Shown: piece after piece, positions 4,880 through 38,300 of the stretch
Layout: each line of letters starts with the position of its first letter
Numbering within the stretch: position 1 is the stretch's first letter
Assembly: GCA_963707985.1 (NCBI GenBank)
Contig: CAVPRW010000004.1
Span: 5,793-69,792, forward strand
DNA from: an uncultured Nitrospinota bacterium
Lineage (GTDB): Bacteria; Tectomicrobia; Entotheonellia; J063; CAVPRW01
Reading direction: 5' to 3'
DNA: 64,000 nt
Notes under the pieces: generated by a model
What the model was told of the DNA's origin: nothing
Databases searched by the model: none
The model's input: only the letters and a program-made list of their open reading frames with translations
Position numbers and translations under genes: made by a program

Positions 4880-7800
4880 GGTCGTTTCCTCCCTCATCAT
4901 TTTCCTCTCCCGAGTGGAGAGGGCTATCCTGGCGCCCCCAGCAGAAGGGGCGAAAGCCACAGCGCGCCAGCTCACACTGCTCGCGTGCGATGCGTGGCCA
5001 GGCACTGACCTCGCGGGCATGCCGCCGTTCGACGTATACCTGCGCCAATTGTAGCAGACGCTCTTCGACACGATCCGTTGCACGAATGGTTCGACGCTCC
5101 GTAGGATACACGCGACTGCGTAGAAAACTCAACTGTACTTCTGCGGATGGGCTATCCATGGCACGCATGGCGGCTAAGGCGTAGATCGCCATCGGCACTT
5201 CATAGCCCGCTTCTTTGTGGCGATCGAAATAGGCGTACTTATGGTCGATCACTACCGGCGTCTCATCGCTACTGATCACCGCGTCCATCCGTCCGCGCAC
5301 GAAGAGCTCTAGCGCTTCTCCTTGAATATGCAGGTGAAATGGCACCTCGCGGCGAAGATGTGGACTGTGCCGCAGGGCTTGCCAGGTGGGGCTATGCAGA
5401 TAGCGTTCGAGGTCTTGCCCCAGCTCTTCAACATCGGCGGCCGTCAGGAGAAACGCCCCCGGCTCCCCACGAATTAGCTCTCGCACGCGGCCGGCCAGGG
5501 CTGCGACGGGGAGGTCCATCTCGATGCGTTCGAGCACGGCATGGACGATGCGCCCCTTATCCACTGCCGGCAGACCCCCGTCCTGCCCCGGCGGCTGTTC
5601 CTCCAGACCCGCCAGGTCGTGGAGAAAAAAATAGCGCGGACATTTGGCCAGTGTCGCCAACGCGGTGGGCGACAATTCCACCGTTTGTGGTAGCGGCGGC
5701 TGCCACCCCCAGACGCGCTGATCAATCGCGTGCAGCTCGTCAGCCGTTGAGGTGGGCAGGGATGGGGTTTCGACCACCTGAATCACCGGCTGTTGCGCCA
5801 GTGTACCGGCATGTCTGAGCTCGATGGTGACCTCGTCCAGGGTCACATCTGCCGATGGCAACGTCCCTGAACGCACCTGGGCAACGACCGCCGCCCGCTC
5901 CGGCTCGGCGAGCAGCCTCCCCATCACCCAAGTATGCCATGGGCCTGGCCTCTTGCTCGCACCTTCGCCCAGGACCAGGAGGTGTTGTGGTCGAGTCAGC
6001 GCCACGTAAAGCAAGCGCTTGAGCTCTTCCACCTCTTTATCGCGTTCCACCACTTCTGCTTCGAGCATCAGCGGGTGCAGCAGGCGCGCGCGATTGATGC
6101 CATACGCTGCTGCACACATCATCCCCCAATGCTCATCGAACATGACCCGACTACCGCGTTCACCTCTGCCCTCATGGGCCAGATCTGGGACGAAGACCGC
6201 CGGAAACTCCAGCCCCTTCGCCTGATGAATGGTCATGATGCGTACCACATCTTCCTCTTCGCTCATGATCTGCGCGTCTGGTGTGCGTGCGGCGTCGTCA
6301 CCGATGTGGTCGCGTAGATAGGCCACAAATTCGTACAGGCCGGCGAGCCCTTTACGACTGAAATCACGGGCCAGATCGAGCAGCTTGTCCACATTCGCGA
6401 CCTGCTGCTCGCCATCGGCTTGTGCCATGAGCACCGCATCGTAGCCGGTCTCACCAATGGCCCATTCCAGCAGCTCAGCAGGGTCCAGTCGATCACACAG
6501 GTGTAACAGCCGCCCGGCCAGACTGACAAAGGGCGCCAGACGTTCTTGTAGCGGAGCGGGCAAGCTGGCCATGCGCTCGGGGGCAAGGACATCCGAGAGC
6601 ATGGCACCGGGTGCCCGTATCTCACACAAGCGATACAGATCGGCAAAATCCAGACCTGCCAGCGGCGACGTCAACACCTCGGCAAGTGCCAGATCATCAC
6701 CGGGATCGACCAGAAAGGTCAGCAATGCCGCAAGGTCCCCCACTTCCTGACGTTGAAAGAAACCGCCCCCTTTGACCCGGTAATAGGGAATACCGCGCTC
6801 GCGCAGCGCCTTCTCATACAGTGGCCCGAAACTATGAGTCTTCACCAGAATGGCGGCGTCGCGATAACTTGCCAGCGTGCCATCGCCATGCGCCTCGGCG
6901 ATGAACTCGGCAAAGGCTCCGGCCTCCAGGGCGCGGCCGACCTCTGCTGCTTGTCCCTCCCCACCCAGGATTAAGATCAAGCGTCCAGTTGTGTGAGAAA
7001 CCTGACCCGGCTGCAGATGGTCTTGCTCGGCATAGCGGAGGCGATGGCGAGTATCCGTGTGCGCTGGCAGCGATTGCGCGCCGGCTCCATCCATCACGGC
7101 GCTGAATAGTGTATTGGCGAAGGTCAGCAGGCTAGCGGTCGAGCGATAATTTTCCACCAGGGCGATGCCGTTGCCGCCGCTGCCCACGATCTTTTCTGCC
7201 ATGGTCACGAAGACGCCCACATCGGCGCGACGGAAACGGTAGATCGACTGCTTCGGATCGCCGACGATGAAGAGGCGCTGGTCGTCGAGGACAATCTGCT
7301 CCAGCAGCGTGCGATAGCGGTCGAATGCATGAAAGGTTCGTTCCTGGCCGCGCACCTCCGCCAGCAGACAGATGATTTCTCCTTGCAGCTCATCGGTATC
7401 CTGAAATTCATCCACCAGAATCGCCCGGAAGCGCTCCTTGTAGCGTCGACGCACGGTCGGATGGAATTTCAAGAGATTGCGGGTATGTGTCAACAAGTCG
7501 TCGAAGTCGAGGCTGCGTGCCACCGTCTTGCGGCGGCGATATTCGGCCTGGATCTGGTCCACTAACACGATCAGCTGGCGCGTCAATTCGACGCTTTTTC
7601 CGCCGGCGAAACAAGCTTTGAGCCCACCATCGACAGCCCTGTCGCCAAGCCAGCGCCGCAGTGTCTCGTGGCCGGCGCGGAGAGCGACGTCAGTCGGGTG
7701 AGACCCCAAATTTCCGGCTTTCAGGAGATCCGCCAGGCTATCGCACACGCTGGCCATGTCGGCCGGGGCATCCAGCGTCAGGCGATCCAACTCGGCTGCG

Positions 7801-30922: not shown

Positions 30923-31423
30923 ATGCGCCTCGTAAAGGGGGGTTGGATTTGGGAGGATGGCCCCCTCGGCCGCCCTGCTGATCCACTCCCCCCAACCGCT
31001 GCCCCACTGTCAACCGCACCTTCTGTCAGAGACACGGCAGAAGCGCCACTCGCCTACACGCTGCCGTACCTTACCGAGCGGATTCTCGCCTCCCGCGCCG
31101 CCCTCGAAGACGAACGCAAGCAGGTGACCGTCCTGTTTGCTGATCTGAATGGCTGGCTCGTCCTCCAGGCCGGCTCGGTCTCGTACGGCCAGGCAACAGT
31201 CGAAGCGCGCTACGGCGCCGCCATGCCCCTGGCCGACGAGCTCGGGATGCGCCCGCTCCAGGCGCACTGTCACTGTGGCCTCGGCACCCTATACGCCACG
31301 ACTGGCCAGCCAGAGCATGCCCGTGCTGAATTATCGATCGCGATTGAGCTGTACCGCACCATGGAGATGAGCTTCTGGCTGCCCCAGGCGGAGGCGGCAC
31401 TGGCGCGGGTGGAGGGGCGGTGA
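30923..31423 (+). pseudogene. Cyclase-STAND copy 4: in-frame patchwork mini-gene
   Basis: APLAYTLPYLTERIL..ERKQVTVLFADL (cyclase start) + GWLVLQAGSVSYGQAT (post-Walker A piece) + LADELGMRPLQAHCH..FWLPQAEAALA (C-terminus) in one 166-aa ORF. Confidence 0.75.
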
Positions 31424-34061
31424 TGGACTTTTATACGGTGCTCGATCAGGTGGTCGCCCTGCTGCGCCGCCGCGGGCGGGTGTCCTATCGGGCGCTGAAG
31501 CGACAATTTGCCCTGGATGATGAGCTGCTCGCCGACCTCACGGCTGAACTGCGCTATGCGCGCTATCCGATCGTCGAGGACGATGACCAAGGCCTGGTTT
31601 GGACTGGGGAGACGGCGCCACCATCGGAGCACACTCCTCCACTGCCTCGGCCCGAAGCCGAGCACGCCCCACACTCCGACCGGCCACCGGCCGAACCGCA
31701 TGCACCAGAGGCCGAACGCCGCCAGCTCACGGTGCTGTTCTGCGACCTGGTGGACTCCACCGTACTGGCCAGTCAGCTTGACCCGGAAGAGCTCCGCGAG
31801 ATGGTGCGGGCATATCAAAGCACGTGCGCCGCTGTTATTCAGCGCTATGACGGGCATATTGCGCAGTATCTCGGCGATGGTTTGCTCGTCTACTTTGGCT
31901 ATCCCCAGGCGCACGAAGATGACGCGCAGCGGGCGGTGCGGGCTGGGCTCGGGATGGTGGAGGCCATGGGACAACTCAGTACCCGCCTGGGGCAGGAGCG
32001 AGGGGTATCCCTAGCCGTACGCCTGGACATCCATACCGGTCAGGTGGTCGTGGGCGAGATCGGAGGTGGGGCGAAGCATGAACAGTTGGCCCTCGGCGAG
32101 ACGCCTAACCTCGCCGCCCGCCTGCAAGGGATTGCGGCGCCCAATACGCTGGTGATCAGTGCCGCGACCTCACAGCTGCTCGGCGGCTTCTTTGCCTGCC
32201 AGTCGCTCGGCACCCCGCTCCTGAAAGGCTTCGCTCAGCCGCTAGAGGTCTATCAGGTGCGGTATGAGAGTATGGCTCGTAGTCGTCTGGAAGCCGCCGG
32301 CAGCTCCAGCCTGACCCCACTCGTGGGCCGGGAGCAGGAAGTAGGGCTGTTGCTGGAGCGCTGGGCGCAGGTCAAGGAGGGGCTCGGGCAAGTGGTGCTG
32401 CTCAGCGGCGAAGCCGGCATCGGCAAATCGCGTCTCGTGCAGGTACTGACGGCACAGGTGGCCACTGAGCCCCAGGCCTGGCTGACGCCGTGTCAATGTT
32501 CGCCCTACTACCAGAATACCGCGTTGTATCCCATGATCGATCTGCTGGAGCGGGTGGCGCTGCGCTTCGAGCGGGAGGAATCGTCGCCGCAGAAGCTGAA
32601 CAAACTGGAGGGATTCCTCGTGCAGTATGGCCTGCCGCTGGCCGAGACCGTGCCCCTCTTCGCCGCCCTCCTCTCCCTGCTGCGCAGGTGTTGGAGGCCC
32701 GCTTTCCCGAGCTCTGTGAGGCCCAGCCCGAGCTGCTGGCCCAGCACTACACGGCGGCAGGCTGTGTCGAGCAGGCGGTGCGCTACTGGCAGCGGGCGGG
32801 CCAACACGCCAGCGACCGCTCAGCCAATGTGGAAGCCATCAGCCACCTGAGCACAGGGATCGAGCTGCTCAAGACGCTCCCAGAGACGCCCGAGCGTATC
32901 CAGCACGCCGTGACCCTGCACATCGCCCTCGGCGCGGCATTGCAGATGGCGAAAGGGCTCGCAGCACCCGAAGTGGAGCACGCCTACACCCAGGCACGCG
33001 CGTTGTGTCAGCAGGTGGGCGAGACCCCAGAGCTTATCCCGGTCCTGTATGGTCTGTGGCGGTTTTATACCGTACGGTTGCAGTTGCACACAGCACGAGA
33101 TCTCGGCGAAACACTGTTGCGCCTGGCACAACGTGCCCACGACCCCATGCTCTCCGTCGTTGCCCACCATGCCCTCGGATGGACGAGGTTCTGTTTTGGC
33201 GCGTTGCCGGCTGCCCGCCAGCACCTGGAGGAAGGCATCGCACACTATACGCCAGACCAGCGCACGGCGTTGGCATTCCGCATGGGCCAAGACCCGGGTA
33301 TTGCCTGCCGAGCCTTGGCCGCGATGACCCTCTGGTTACTGGGGTACCCGGAGCAAGCCCTGGCCCGCCTCCATGATGCCCTGGCGTTGGCACACGCGCT
33401 GTCGCATGCCTATAGTCTGGCGTTTGCGCAGTGGTTGGCGGCCATCGTCTATCAGTTTCGCCGGGACGTGCCAGCCGCGCACGAGCAGGCAGAGGCCGCC
33501 GTCGCGCTCTCGACCGAGCAGGGATTTCCACAGTGGGCGGCCTATGGAACGAGCTTACGTGGGTGGGCGCTGGCCATGCAGGGCCAGGGTGAGGAGGGGC
33601 TGGCGCAGGTCCGCCAGGGAATCGCCGCCTGGCGGGCCACCGGGGCGGCGTTGTTGGTCCCATACTTGTATACCTTGCTGGCGGAAGTCTGTGCCCATCT
33701 GGGCCACATGGAAGATGGCCTCCGGGCGCTGGCCGAGGCCCACACCCTGGTGGAGCAGCATGAGGAACGCTGGTGGGAAGCGGAAATCTCTCGCCTCCGG
33801 GGCGTCATGCTCCTGCGGCAGCCGGGGACGCTGCCGGCGGAGGCGGAGACCTCCTTTCATCAGGCCCTGGCCGTGGCCCGCCGCCAGGAGGCCAAGTCGC
33901 TGGAGCTGCGGGCCGCCATGAGCCTCGCTCGCCTGTGGCGGCAACAAGGCAAGCGGGATGAAGCGCGCGAGCTGCTGGCACCCATCTACGCCTGGTTCAC
34001 CGAGGGCTTTGACACCGCCGACCTCCAGGAGGCGAAGGCCTTGCTCGCGGAGTTGTCGTGA
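31420..34061 (+). pseudogene. Cyclase-AAA-TPR copy 5; ~260-codon internal deletion with frameshift at 32680
   Basis: Head, cyclase and Walker A are present. LLSL is joined to AQVLEARFP, so Walker B and the helical linker present in copies 3 and 6 are missing. TPR region and C-terminus intact. Confidence 0.85.
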
Positions 34062-34069
34062 AGTCGTGT

Positions 34070-34315
34070 CTACACCAGATCACGGTCAGGCTGAACACCC
34101 TCAAGCTGCAAATCCTTGAGATCGATACCAAAGGCTTGGGCTTGCTGCTGCATGAGGGAAACAACCCTATGAAAACCCTGGACATACCCGTCGTAGAACT
34201 CCTGCGCGGCTCGATCGCTCTGCTTCTCCCGCTCCACTACCGCGGCCAGCGCATACTCCTTGATGAGTCCCCCCAGGTCAAAGAGGTAGTTTTTAACTGT
34301 ATCGTCGTCTTTCAT
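34070..34315 (-). CDS. Putative immunity protein (81 aa)
   Basis: FYDGYVQGFHRVVSLMQQQAQAFGIDLKDLQL pattern recalled from RHS/CDI immunity genes; start overlaps the upstream stop (TAATG). Confidence 0.55.
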   Translation of the reverse strand: MKDDDTVKNYLFDLGGLIKEYALAAVVEREKQSDRAAQEFYDGYVQGFHRVVSLMQQQAQAFGIDLKDLQLEGVQPDRDLV

Positions 34316-34611
34316 TACTGGATACCCCTTTCTTGCAGTATCCCCCGCATGACATCGGCCAACTCCTGGTTGCGGATCAGATCCTGCTGCCAGTGCCGTA
34401 GGAGCCCCGGCTGAGCACGAGGACTCTTCCTGACCCAATCTTGGACGAACCTCTCCGGGCTGCTCATCTTCTGCCGATGCAGCGCCGCCTGTCTCTCATA
34501 GCTCCGCAACGCCCGCTGAATTTCCTCCACGCTTTTCCCCTGGTATAGCCGCAGGAGACCTGCATGCCGCCCTCCCTGCTTGGCAACCTCATAAGCGCTC
34601 CATTCCGCCAC
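34315..34611 (-). CDS. Free-standing polymorphic-toxin-like domain (~98 aa, AYEVAKQGGRHAG...)
   Basis: RBS GGGAGG then GTG (34611; TTG 34617 alternative); the motif pattern is recalled from RHS C-terminal toxin domains. Confidence 0.55.
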   Translation of the reverse strand: MAEWSAYEVAKQGGRHAGLLRLYQGKSVEEIQRALRSYERQAALHRQKMSSPERFVQDWVRKSPRAQPGLLRHWQQDLIRNQELADVMRGILQERGIQ

Positions 34612-34669
34612 ATCCAACCTCCCCCCATCCAGAAGAGCGCCTGAGGTTGATATTCACCACTCCAGTAGA

Positions 34670-34957
34670 TCACTCCCCCGTCGTCGGTTGCCGGGCACCA
34701 ATGTTTGTGGTCGGTAAGTCGCGGCCTTCAAGTGCTGCGTAGAGATCACGTACGCCTAGCCCGAGCTCTTGCGCAAAAAATCCAAGGCTGATCTCCCCCT
34801 CCTCGAATCGCCGATAGAGTTGTTGCAGGCGATGCTCAAAGCCCAGGTCGATCAATTCGGCCAGAAACTGAGCGATCCCTTCACTGCCCTCCGCTGCCTT
34901 GCGGCGCTCCGCCGCCCGTAGAATCTCCTCCTTCACCGGCACCACGGCTCTCGGCAC
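34670..34957 (-). CDS. UPF0175-like HTH protein (putative antitoxin/regulator)
   Basis: LYRRFEEGEISLGFFAQELGLGVRDLY motif; RBS GGAGGTG. Confidence 0.65.
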   Translation of the reverse strand: MPRAVVPVKEEILRAAERRKAAEGSEGIAQFLAELIDLGFEHRLQQLYRRFEEGEISLGFFAQELGLGVRDLYAALEGRDLPTTNIGARQPTTGE

Positions 34958-35305
34958 GTTGTTTCACCTCCTGCAGGCATGCCAAATAGCAGATAGTCAA
35001 TCACAAGCACGCCTTGTACCTCAAATTTGCACGCCGTGATGAGCGGCGCCGGACCCTTCTCCCTGTCTCCGGAATGGCGATGGTGGGATGCCATCGCTCC
35101 AGAGTACATACCGCCTTCATGGTACAGGCGGTCTCCTATTCTGACAAGAGCATTGCCGTTGCTGTCAGGGTACCACTGTAATGTCGGCCCAGGGGAAATG
35201 CCGCCATGATATAATGCCGGGGCAATTCTTCCGCGAGGAGAAGAGCGTTTTGCGAGCCAAACAGTGAAGGTTGTGAGCTCTGGCCCTGGCCGGTGCGGAG
35301 GGTGG

Positions 35306-38300
35306 ATGATGGATTATGAAGCGATCCTGTCACAGATCGTCGCCCTCCTGCAGCGGGAAGGCCGCATCGCCTATCGTGTCCTCAAGCGACGGCTGCAGCT
35401 CGATGATGACCTGCTGGAAGATCTGAAGGATGATCTGATCTATGCGAAGAAGCTTGCCAGCGATGAGGAGGGGAAGGTGCTGGTGTGGGCTGGTGCACAG
35501 GCGGAACCATCACCCCCAAGCGGCTCCCCCTCGCCCGAAGCTCCCCCTCTAGAGGCCGAACGACGTCAGCTCACCGTGCTGTTTTGTGACCTGGTGGACT
35601 CGACCGAGCTGGCCAGCCAGCTCGACCCCGAAGAGTGGCGCGAGGTGGTGCGGGCCTATCAAGAGACGTGCGCCAAGGTGATTGCCCGCTATGAGGGGGA
35701 GATCGCCCAGTATCTCGGCGATGGCCTGCTGGTCTACTTCGGCTACCCCCTGGCGCACGAGGATGACGCCCGGCGGGCGGTGCGCGCCGGCCTCGGGATG
35801 GTGGAGGCCATGGGGCAACTCAATGCCCGCCTGGCGCGCGAGCACGGGGTGCAACTAGCCGTGCGTCTGGGCATCCATACGGGTCAGGTGGTCGTGGGCG
35901 AGATCGGGGGCGGGGCGAAGCATGAGCAGTTGGCCCTCGGCGAGACGCCCAATGTCGCCGCCCGCCTGCAAGGGATCGCTGCGCCCAATACGCTGGTGAT
36001 CAGTGCCGCGACGCTTCACCTGCTCAGCGGCTTCTTTGCCTGCCAGTCGCTCGGCACCCCACTCCTGAAAGGCGTCACCCAGCCGCTGGAGGTCTATCGG
36101 GTGTTGTATGAGAGTATGGCCCGCAGCCGCCTGGAAGCGGCCGGGAGCGCTAGTCTGACCCCGCTGGTGGGCCGCGAGCAGGAGGTGGCGTTACTGCGGG
36201 AGCGCTGGGCACAGGTCAAGGACGGTCTCGGAGCAAGTGGTGCTGCTCAGCGGCGAGGCGGGCATCGGCAAATCGCGCCTGGTGCAGGGGCTGACCGAAC
36301 AGGTGGCCAGCGAGCCCCAGGCTTGGCTGACCCCATGCCAATGTTCGCCCTATCATCAGAACAGCGCCTTGTATCCGCTGATCGACCTGCTGGAGCGGGT
36401 GGTGCTGCGCTTTGATCGGGACGAGCCCCCCCAGCAGAAGCTTCGCAAGCTGGAGGGGTTCGTGGTGCAGTATGGCCTGCCGCTGGCAGAGGCCGTGTTC
36501 CTCTTGGCCACCCTCCTCTCGCTCCCACTCAGCACCGACTATGCCCCACTGGCCTTCTCGCCCGAGCAGCAGAAGCAGAAGACCCTGCAAGCCCTCCTGA
36601 CGATCCTGCTGCGTATTGCCGCCCAGCAGCCCGTGCTCTTCGTCATGGAAGACCTGCATTGGATTGATCCGTCCACGCTGGAGCTACTCACCCTCCTGGT
36701 GGACCAAGGCCCCACCGCCCGCATCCTGGCGCTCTTCACCTGCCGGCCGGACTTCAGCCCGCCCTGGACGGGGCGGGCCCATCTCACCCAGATGACGCTC
36801 AACCGCTTGCCCCGACGACAGGCCGTGGAGGTGATCCGCCAGGCGGCCCACGGCAAGGTGCTACCTCCCGAGGTGGTCGAGCAGATCGTGGCCAAGACCG
36901 ATGGGGTGCCCCTGTTTGTGGAGGAATTGACCAAGATGGTGCTGGAGTCGGGACTGCTCCAGGAGCGGGACGAGCGCTATGAGCTGACCGGGCCCCTGCA
37001 CCCGCTGGCCATTCCCGCCACCCTGCACGACTCGCTGATGGCACGGCTCGATCGCTTGGCATCGGTGAAGGGCCTGGCGCAACTCGGGGCGACGCTGGGG
37101 CGCGAGTTTGCCTATGACCTGCTACAGGCCGTCGCCCCCTGTGACGAGGGCACCTTGCAACGGGGGCTGCACCAGCTGGTGGAGGCGGAGTTCCTCTACC
37201 AGCAGGGGCTGCCGCCGCAGGCGACGTACCGCTTCAAGCATGCCCTGATTCAGGATGCCGCCTATCAGTCCGTACTGCGGAGCACCCGCCAGCAGCACCA
37301 TCAGCGCATTGCCCAGGTGTTAGAGACACGGTTCCCGGAGACTGCCGAGACGCAACCAGAGCTGGTGGCGCACCACTACACCGAGGCCGGGCGCACAGAG
37401 CAGGCCATCCCTTATTGGCAGCGGGCAGGCCAGCGCGCGGTTGAGCGCTCGGCCAATCTGGAAGCGGTGGCACACCTCACGAAAGGGCTGGAGGTGCTCG
37501 CCACCCTGCCAGACACCCCCGAGCGCGCTCAGCAGGAGCTGCTCGTGCAGACCACCATGGGCCCAGCGTTGATGGCTACCAAGGGCTATGGGTCCCCTGA
37601 GGTGTTACGCACCTATGCCCGGGCGCGAGAGCTCTGCCAGCAGGTAGGGGAGACCCCGCAGCTCTTCCAGGTGCTACGGGGATTGTGGTACTTCTACCTC
37701 ATACGGCTGGAGTTACGGACAGCGCGGGAGCTGGGGGAGCAGCTCCTCACCCTGGCCCAGCATGTCGGCGACTCGGCGCTGCTCTTGGAGTCCCACTATG
37801 CCTTAGGGAACACCTTGAACTATCTGGGCGAGTTCGCCGCTGCCCGGGCATACTTGGAGCAGGGCATCGCCCTCTACGACCCCCAGCGGCACCGTGCCCA
37901 TGCCTTCCGCTACGGGCAGGACCCCGGGGTGGCTTGCCGATCCTATGCCGCCGTGACCCTGTGGTGGCTGGGCTATCCAGACCAAGCCCTGCAGAGGAGC
38001 CACGAGGCGCTGACGCTGGCCCGGGAGGTGGCACACCCCTTCAGCCTGGCATACGTTCTGTTCTTTGCCGCCCTTCTCCATCACTTCCGCCGGGAGGGGC
38101 AACTAACCCAGGAGCGGGCCGAGGAAGCAGGTCGCGCTCTCTAGCGAGCATGGGTTTCCGCAGCTGTTGGCGGGGGGAAGATTCTTCCAGGGCTGGGCGT
38201 TGGTCGAGCAGGGACAGGGAGCGGAGGGGATGGCACAGATGCATCAGGGCATGGCCGCCTGGCGGGCGACGGGGGCCGAGGTGGTTTGGCCGTATTATCT

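Follow-up and report, generated by a model that had tools for sequence, protein, structure and literature searches.

We analysed a 64,000-nt stretch of DNA (the window; CAVPRW010000004.1, positions 5,793-69,792 of the forward strand, assembly GCA_963707985.1), in which three compact co-oriented genes lie on the minus strand at positions 34070-34957; coordinates given without a locus name are window positions. Gene 1 encodes a divergent UPF0175-like protein, gene 2 a predicted stand-alone toxin and gene 3 its predicted immunity protein. From the evidence presented below it is probable that genes 2 and 3 form an autonomous two-gene module of the toxin-antitoxin (TA) kind, which originated from the C-terminal tip of a polymorphic toxin, and that gene 1 is a foreign remnant beside it. 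The three genes are not chance open reading frames (ORFs), because each has about 100-200 clusters of homologues (60-96% identity for all three) and the ratios of nonsynonymous to synonymous substitution (dN/dS) of genes 2 and 3 are well below 1. The assembly that contains the window, referred to as the own genome (G000), has a size of 8.3 Mb in 48 contigs and is 95% complete; related loci used for comparison bear L-numbers, and G001 is a genome of the same genus.

To which family gene 2 belongs was determined by homology searches. A word-indexed search returned about 100 free-standing proteins of about 98 aa with 60-95% identity to gene 2, and phmmer against 1.84 billion representatives returned 919 matches at E <= 1e-3, which are representative clusters at 50% identity; a pattern scan of named genomes, which was too insensitive, gave 2 loci only. 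The position of the domain (query residues 7-98) was examined in the 246 matches that could be re-aligned. The domain ends no more than 5 residues from the C-terminus in 225 of them, and more than 50 residues precede it in 115. The long carriers contain RHS repeats, YD-shell, SpvB/TcdB or DUF637 (CdiA-like) regions; a Pfam tally over 87 longer members adds RHS, PT-HINT, PT-TG, Phage_Mu_F and WXG100, and in the consensus of the longer members the RHS core end GRFxxxD...NNPxxxxDPxG precedes the tip. Since the domain stands at the extreme C-terminus of such diverse trafficking and pre-toxin carriers, it can be identified as a polymorphic-toxin tip: gene 2 is homologous to the C-terminal tips of RHS/CdiA-type polymorphic toxins, and its domain defines a large uncharacterised all-helical family of about 92 aa that is normally found as such a tip. 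An earlier reading of the window, made from its letters without database searches (hereafter the sequence-only reading), had pointed to a resemblance to the C-terminal toxins of RHS and contact-dependent inhibition proteins, and the phmmer homology, the C-terminal position and the carrier domains confirmed it.

The window protein itself does not have the full architecture of a polymorphic toxin, that is, a trafficking domain followed by a pre-toxin region or RHS core. It is 98-100 aa long, contains no RHS-core motif and no signal peptide, and its open frame reaches only 12 codons further upstream, therefore it is without an N-terminal extension; the absence of an RHS core or delivery domain had been correctly noticed in the sequence-only reading. 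Comparison with 20 related loci placed the true start of gene 2, by conservation, at the GTG at 34611. The Shine-Dalgarno-like sequence GGGGGGAGG lies upstream of this conserved GTG and a purine-rich sequence of the same kind occurs at the equivalent position in other free-standing loci, so the claim that gene 2 has its own ribosome-binding site also stands. The coupling of genes 2 and 3 that had been described is present as TAATG at 34313-34317, in which the stop codon of gene 2 (TAA) and the start codon of gene 3 (ATG) have one base in common. The product of gene 2 is hydrophilic (grand average of hydropathy -0.84) and basic, with an isoelectric point (pI) of 10.1, and that of gene 3 is acidic (pI 4.5).

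To place the free-standing copies within the family, a tree of 171 domain sequences was examined, with clade members counted as non-redundant at 85%. The window copy falls in a clade of 37-39 sequences, none of which is fused, with a Shimodaira-Hasegawa-like support of 94, and the free or fused state changes 10 times on the tree, compared with about 39 times with shuffled labels. In this clade the GTG start, the Shine-Dalgarno-like sequence (in most members) and a stop/start overlap of 1 or 4 nt are conserved; across nearly all loci the overlap is ATGA, GTGA or, as in the window, TAATG. The median pairwise dN/dS was 0.17 for gene 2 and 0.10 for gene 3, values that are approximate because dS was often saturated and that indicate, at sequence level, purifying selection on both genes. 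By these comparisons the clade of the window has evidently lost the delivery part and now appears as a free-standing toxin-immunity pair. Its two small, adjacent and coupled genes have the form of an autonomous type II TA unit.

The surroundings of the pair are also those of a solitary cassette. The own genome has one copy of gene 2, and its RHS genes lie on contigs C31 and C37 only, not on the contig of the window; the pair is thus away from any RHS gene and under purifying selection, as expected for the free-standing pair that had been proposed. The flanking genes are unrelated housekeeping genes that vary by locus (hydantoinase A/B, histidine kinases, HpaB, amidohydrolase, Uma2), and no third gene is conserved between groups of gene 2-3 loci. 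The only upstream stretch common to the locus groups consists of about 60-100 nt upstream of gene 2, and a promoter-like block TTGACA-N17/18-TAnGnT stands just upstream of gene 2 in L003, L017, L019 and L022. Horizontal spread is suggested by homologues of 67-76% identity in metagenome-assembled genomes (MAGs) with the labels Binatia, Tectomicrobia and Entotheonellia. G001 is without genes 2-3 and without an intact gene 1, so that no empty site could be defined. L040, where gene 1 adjoins a convergent cyclase/ATPase/TPR gene, was considered as an empty site and rejected: only gene 1 aligns at the DNA level, and the TPR proteins are 24% identical.

Some further features of the free-standing loci were observed. 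A short conserved non-coding block, TTGACAAACCC...TAAGGTTTT or TAGGCTTT, is located about 60-100 nt upstream of gene 2 in L003 (5955-5994), L017, L019, L022 and L025-L030 and travels with the cassette; it is likely, judging from its conservation and position, to be a promoter or leader. In L003 and L017 a -10-like hexamer is found only about 10 nt ahead of the GTG. In L022 (2824-8152) the cassette (4983-5527) lies between the hydantoinase/oxoprolinase A and B genes and looks like an insertion into a metabolic operon.

Gene 3 was examined in the same loci. Among 37 loci, 35 have a gene-3 homologue, detected by phmmer or profile search, immediately behind gene 2; L011, a class-level relative, is one of them, and so are the RHS-fused L034 (frame of 879 aa) and L035 (frame of 511 aa). 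Because this arrangement extends to the RHS-fused loci, we concluded that gene 3 is the presumptive cognate immunity gene of gene 2. The conserved core of gene 3, HRVVSLMQQQAxAFGIxL, contains the QQA tail from which an immunity-like gene had been recognised, and this motif and the gene-2 pattern described with it both correspond to real conserved columns, the latter in 130 non-redundant gene-2 homologues. The AlphaFold2 (AF2) model of gene 3 is a two-helix hairpin with a predicted local distance difference test score (pLDDT) of 95.

The AF2 model of gene 2 has a pLDDT of 93 and consists of helices 8-13, 19-26, 30-52 and 68-96, in which a GG[RK]H loop sits on the two short helices and is followed by a long hairpin (30-52, 68-96). 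Conserved in the 130 non-redundant members are A12, G15, G16, [RK]17, H18, G20, Y25, E32, S39, H47, K50, P54, W61, W76, D79, R82, E85 and G92, and the window protein carries all conserved family residues. No significant match to Pfam, NCBIfam, PADLOC or PHROGs was obtained for any of the three proteins, and no Pfam model covers the tip in the 87 longer homologues. When the gene-2 and gene-1 alignments were used as profiles against PDB sequences, only chance coiled-coil matches appeared, and Foldseek against the PDB, for which helical hairpins are an uninformative shape, gave nothing at E <1 for the models of gene 2 or gene 3. Among viral folds, gene 2 was matched best (E 1.6e-3, TMq 0.74) by a minor capsid protein of a siphovirus, 401 aa in length, which would fit a MuF-type toxin. 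In L009 (Thiocapsa) the tip is preceded by an N-terminal region containing GWGCKCW, which we take to be MuF-like.

With regard to activity, we tentatively suggest, with somewhat less than even confidence, that gene 2 encodes an enzyme acting on nucleic acid, probably RNA, because the toxin is basic, the immunity protein acidic and His, His, Lys, Arg and acidic residues are invariant; the suggestion follows the analogy of the numerous nuclease tips reported by Zhang et al. 2012 (PMC3482391). An Rx4-6H motif of the HEPN type, looked for by eye, is absent. The candidate catalytic residues would be the invariant GG[RK]H loop, H47-x2-K50 and D79/R82/E85. The pair may work inside the producing cell in the manner of a toxin-first type II TA or addiction module: the basic toxin would be made first, the acidic immunity protein, produced through translational coupling, would bind and neutralise it, and the toxin would be released once the cassette is lost or silenced. 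In the lineage of the window the pair would probably be co-transcribed with gene 1 from an old promoter of a DUF3368 gene, as a by-product of its position.

That gene 1 has a different origin is indicated by its distribution. It stands beside genes 2-3 only in the window, L002 and L012-L015, and is absent from about 30 other gene 2-3 loci. These six loci are 91-98% identical at the nucleotide level and have the same flanks; they represent one syntenic lineage, and thus a single event. In L040 and L041, where the gene-1 homologue is about 75% identical, a DUF3368 gene lies upstream and overlaps it. UPF0175 is reported to occur exclusively with the COG2405/DUF3368 PIN-like family (PMC5499597). 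The assignment of gene 1 to a UPF0175-like family, made in the sequence-only reading, held in part: weak UPF0175 matches were obtained for 23 of 29 gene-1 homologues (best E 8e-4), while the window gene 1 itself did not match PF03683 at E up to 1 and reached no Pfam threshold.

Remains of the DUF3368 partner are still present in the window. By tblastn, APLITACKFEVQGVLVIDYLL, encoded at 34988-35051, matches residues 26-48 of the DUF3368 protein of L040 with 83% identity, and the ORF at 34881-35000 on the minus strand reads ...LQEVKQRAESRGAGEGG, matching ...LQEVREHAESRGASQGG in L040. In L012 and L013 the DUF3368 gene is nearly full-length but frameshifted. Alignment with these two loci revealed two deletions common to the window and L002, one at 35051/35052, by which 85 bp including the start codon were lost, and one at 34987/34988, by which about 402 bp were lost. 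The DUF3368 partner is thus intact in L040/L041, frameshifted in L012/L013 and reduced to remnants in the window and L002. Gene 1 of L014 is interrupted by an in-frame TGA at its codon 50, with genes 2 and 3 intact. We concluded from these alignments that gene 1 represents the orphaned putative antitoxin of a neighbouring UPF0175-like/DUF3368 pair whose toxin gene was destroyed by the two deletions. The own genome contains five other DUF3368 paralogues, which could explain why an orphan antitoxin was retained. The only promoter-like site found on this strand (35147-35119) lies upstream of the DUF3368 remnant, so that read-through into genes 2-3 is plausible but would be accidental in origin. 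The coordinates of the features are given in Table 1.

Table 1. Positions of the genes, remnants and putative signals at the locus (window coordinates)
Feature	Position	Strand	Remark
Gene 1 (divergent UPF0175-like antitoxin)	34670-34957	-	95 aa
Gene 2 (stand-alone toxin, predicted)	34315-34611	-	98 aa from the conserved GTG
Gene 2, alternative longer reading	34315-34617	-	100 aa from TTG
Gene 3 (cognate immunity protein, predicted)	34070-34315	-	81 aa
Shine-Dalgarno-like GGGGGGAGG	34618-34626	-	6 nt separate its end from the gene 2 GTG (34611)
DUF3368 N-terminal-part remnant APLITACKFEVQGVLVIDYLL	34988-35051	-	tblastn and alignment with L012/L013
DUF3368 C-terminal-end remnant	34881-34987	-	other frame; overlaps the gene 1 start as in intact loci
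Sigma-70-like promoter match TTGTCA-17-TACCAT	35119-35147	-	consensus match only; upstream of the DUF3368 remnant

Other sequences related to gene 1 and its neighbourhood were also noted. The own genome has another gene-1-like sequence (contig C16, 90182-90388), which is interrupted by two in-frame TAG stops, and a similar one lies in G001 (contig C86, 9830-10081); both are probably pseudogenised paralogues. In L042 (545-3291) a gene-1 homologue stands in a group of TA-like pairs, with UPF0150 + HicA, NTP_transf_2 + NTase_sub_bind and split DUF3368 fragments. The genes flanking the three-gene locus in the window, which encode adenylate/guanylate cyclase, AAA ATPase and TPR regions on the plus strand (31420-34061 and 35264-38144), each seem to be split into two overlapping ORFs in different frames (31420-32850 and 32490-34061; 35264-36415 and 36237-38144). 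The split cyclase gene calls recur in the syntenic L002; in L040 the gene is undivided and codes for more than 884 aa.

The sequence-only reading had proposed that the three genes work together as a tripartite module under a UPF0175-like regulator. Gene 1 would then be dedicated to genes 2-3 as such a regulator or as a further antitoxin, whether from the beginning or recruited once the DUF3368 toxin was lost. It is true that the genes are co-oriented with only 52 nt between genes 1 and 2, that no promoter-like or terminator-like site was found between these two, and that gene 1 is intact in the window, L002, L012, L013 and L015 despite its frameshifted or deleted partner. However, about 30 other gene 2-3 loci do without gene 1 and have no other conserved third gene, all loci with the three genes belong to the one syntenic lineage, homologues of gene 1 pair elsewhere with DUF3368, and L014 keeps genes 2-3 with a stop codon in gene 1; retention of gene 1 could be due to the five DUF3368 paralogues. 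The tripartite reading was therefore abandoned as the preferred one and appears quite unlikely. A defence role had been suggested with it; no PADLOC match was found, and the neighbours are cyclase/ATPase/TPR or metabolic genes with no defence island.

It has also to be considered that the pair is an orphan cassette of interbacterial conflict, either a spare for RHS recombination or an immunity gene kept against the RHS toxins of neighbours, with gene 2 as a silent passenger. Standalone cassettes have been described for polymorphic toxin systems (PMC3482391), and such arrays exist in this family. In L004 a 3129-aa RHS/SpvB/Calx-beta protein that ends in an Ntox44 tip is encoded 3 kb upstream of the gene 2+3 pair, and ...NNPLRYTDPTGH, an RHS core end almost the same as that of the main RHS gene, is still present in the orphan open frame. 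Because this core end is retained downstream of a full RHS gene, L004 is a classical orphan cassette. The own genome does have RHS genes, on C31 and C37, and in L036-L039 the toxin is truncated and the immunity gene intact. On the other hand, the window has neither a core end of the form PxxxxDPxG[LH] nor an upstream RHS gene to which the pair would be downstream: gene 2 has no homology to an RHS core through which it could recombine, its open frame starts just 12 codons further upstream, and the RHS genes lie on different contigs. Moreover, across the free-standing clade gene 2 keeps its start and Shine-Dalgarno-like sequence at a dN/dS of about 0.17, which is not expected of a silent passenger. 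We thus regard an orphan conflict cassette as unlikely. A secreted cargo effector, exported unfused by a contractile injection system or another route while gene 3 protects sibling cells, seems more improbable still. Tse2/Tsi2 is a known example of a small antibacterial effector that stands free and has an acidic helical immunity protein, and the gene-3 model weakly resembles PA2703/Tsi2, a match that is not significant (TM 0.53, E 7.3). Against this, a search of the 95%-complete own genome for a VipB/TssC homologue (type VI secretion sheath) was negative, the free-standing loci examined have no genes for secretion, RHS or adaptor proteins nearby, and gene 2 has no signal peptide.

The L004-type and decayed relatives deserve separate description. 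The region 1-9361 of L004, as also L005-L007, contains an array of small orphan cassettes, in which genes 2-3 are accompanied by a DDE transposase and by a gene with a Colicin_D domain, and L008, a Roseiflexaceae MAG, carries a degraded copy of the L004-type orphan. Decayed pairs were found at L036 (170-775), L037 (2516-3121), L038 (435-826) and L039 (171-657), in which gene 2 is truncated or internally deleted (residues 40-90 only, or 2-23 plus 71-100) and gene 3 has full length; a single open frame of 202 aa covers what is left of gene 2 together with gene 3 in L036 and L037.

An autonomous TA-like pair with a foreign gene 1 remains our preferred interpretation, and several points weigh against it. 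The decayed pairs show that the immunity gene is the part kept in some lineages, and the saturation of dS limits what the substitution ratios can tell. The clear TTGACA promoter block of other loci was not seen in the lineage of the window. Gene 3 has no recognisable DNA-binding domain and no family or fold match, so that autoregulation in the style of type II TA systems is not evident, and neither Foldseek nor the profile search against the PDB gives a mechanism for gene 2 from any known fold or family. Toxicity of gene 2, its binding by gene 3 and an intracellular action are all inferred, and the toxin may be exported by an unrecognised route. A bolder version can be put forward, in which the family would be a new toxin superfamily with a new helical-hairpin fold and catalytic site, a branch of these weapon tips would have become a mobile, promoter-bearing intracellular addiction or defence cassette, and in the lineage of the window this cassette would have come under the orphaned UPF0175-like antitoxin as a hybrid module; taken as a whole, we think this version rather improbable.

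The findings are of interest in three respects. A widespread family of toxin tips (919 clusters) is missing from current domain libraries and from the PDB; since it comes with a paired immunity family, a confident predicted structure and candidate catalytic residues, it is ready for biochemical study. The stand-alone clade provides a phylogenetically resolved case of the passage from polymorphic-toxin tip to autonomous two-gene cassette, which bears on the exchange of parts between interbacterial weapons and intracellular TA systems. The locus also gives a caution for annotation, as adjacent small co-oriented genes may be two unrelated modules, one of them decayed, and not a tripartite system.

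Compared with known systems, the closest likeness is to the tips of RHS/CdiA toxins, for which orphan toxin-immunity cassettes have been described (Zhang et al. 2012, PMC3482391). A homologous domain occupies the extreme C-terminus of RHS, DUF637, PT-HINT, PT-TG, MuF and WXG100 carriers, the immunity gene follows directly downstream, a basic toxin is combined with an acidic immunity protein, and the orphan copy of L004 retains the RHS core end. The window gene differs in having no trafficking domain, RHS-core remnant or nearby RHS gene, and in having its own start and Shine-Dalgarno-like sequence and being under purifying selection as a 98-aa protein, with a promoter-like block in its relatives; moreover, the toxin domain is not covered by any Pfam or NCBIfam model, the Ntox and Tox families included. 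With phage MuF toxins the family shares one homologue carrying Phage_Mu_F and the siphovirus minor capsid protein as best viral fold match, but the window pair is outside a prophage context and has no MuF domain attached. Gene 1 resembles the UPF0175 (COG2886)/DUF3368 (COG2405) pairs (PMC5499597) in the weak UPF0175 matches of its homologues, in the upstream DUF3368 overlap in L040/L041 and in the two DUF3368 fragments at the same position in the window, and differs in that the window toxin gene was destroyed by the 85-bp and ~402-bp deletions and that gene 1 stays below Pfam thresholds.

In organisation, genes 2 and 3 correspond to toxin-first type II TA systems of the HigBA, HicAB and MqsRA type: they are two small overlapping co-oriented genes with the toxin before its neutraliser, have a solitary and patchy distribution among unrelated genes, and show high identity across Binatia, Tectomicrobia and Entotheonellia MAGs. 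They differ from these systems in that the second protein has no recognisable DNA-binding domain and that the toxin, here predicted from sequence, is unlike any TA toxin family. It is well established (PMC3482391) that toxin cassettes may stand alone and that polymorphic toxins and TA systems have toxin domains in common; what is new here is an unlisted toxin/immunity family together with a clearly resolved free-standing clade that looks like a solitary TA cassette.

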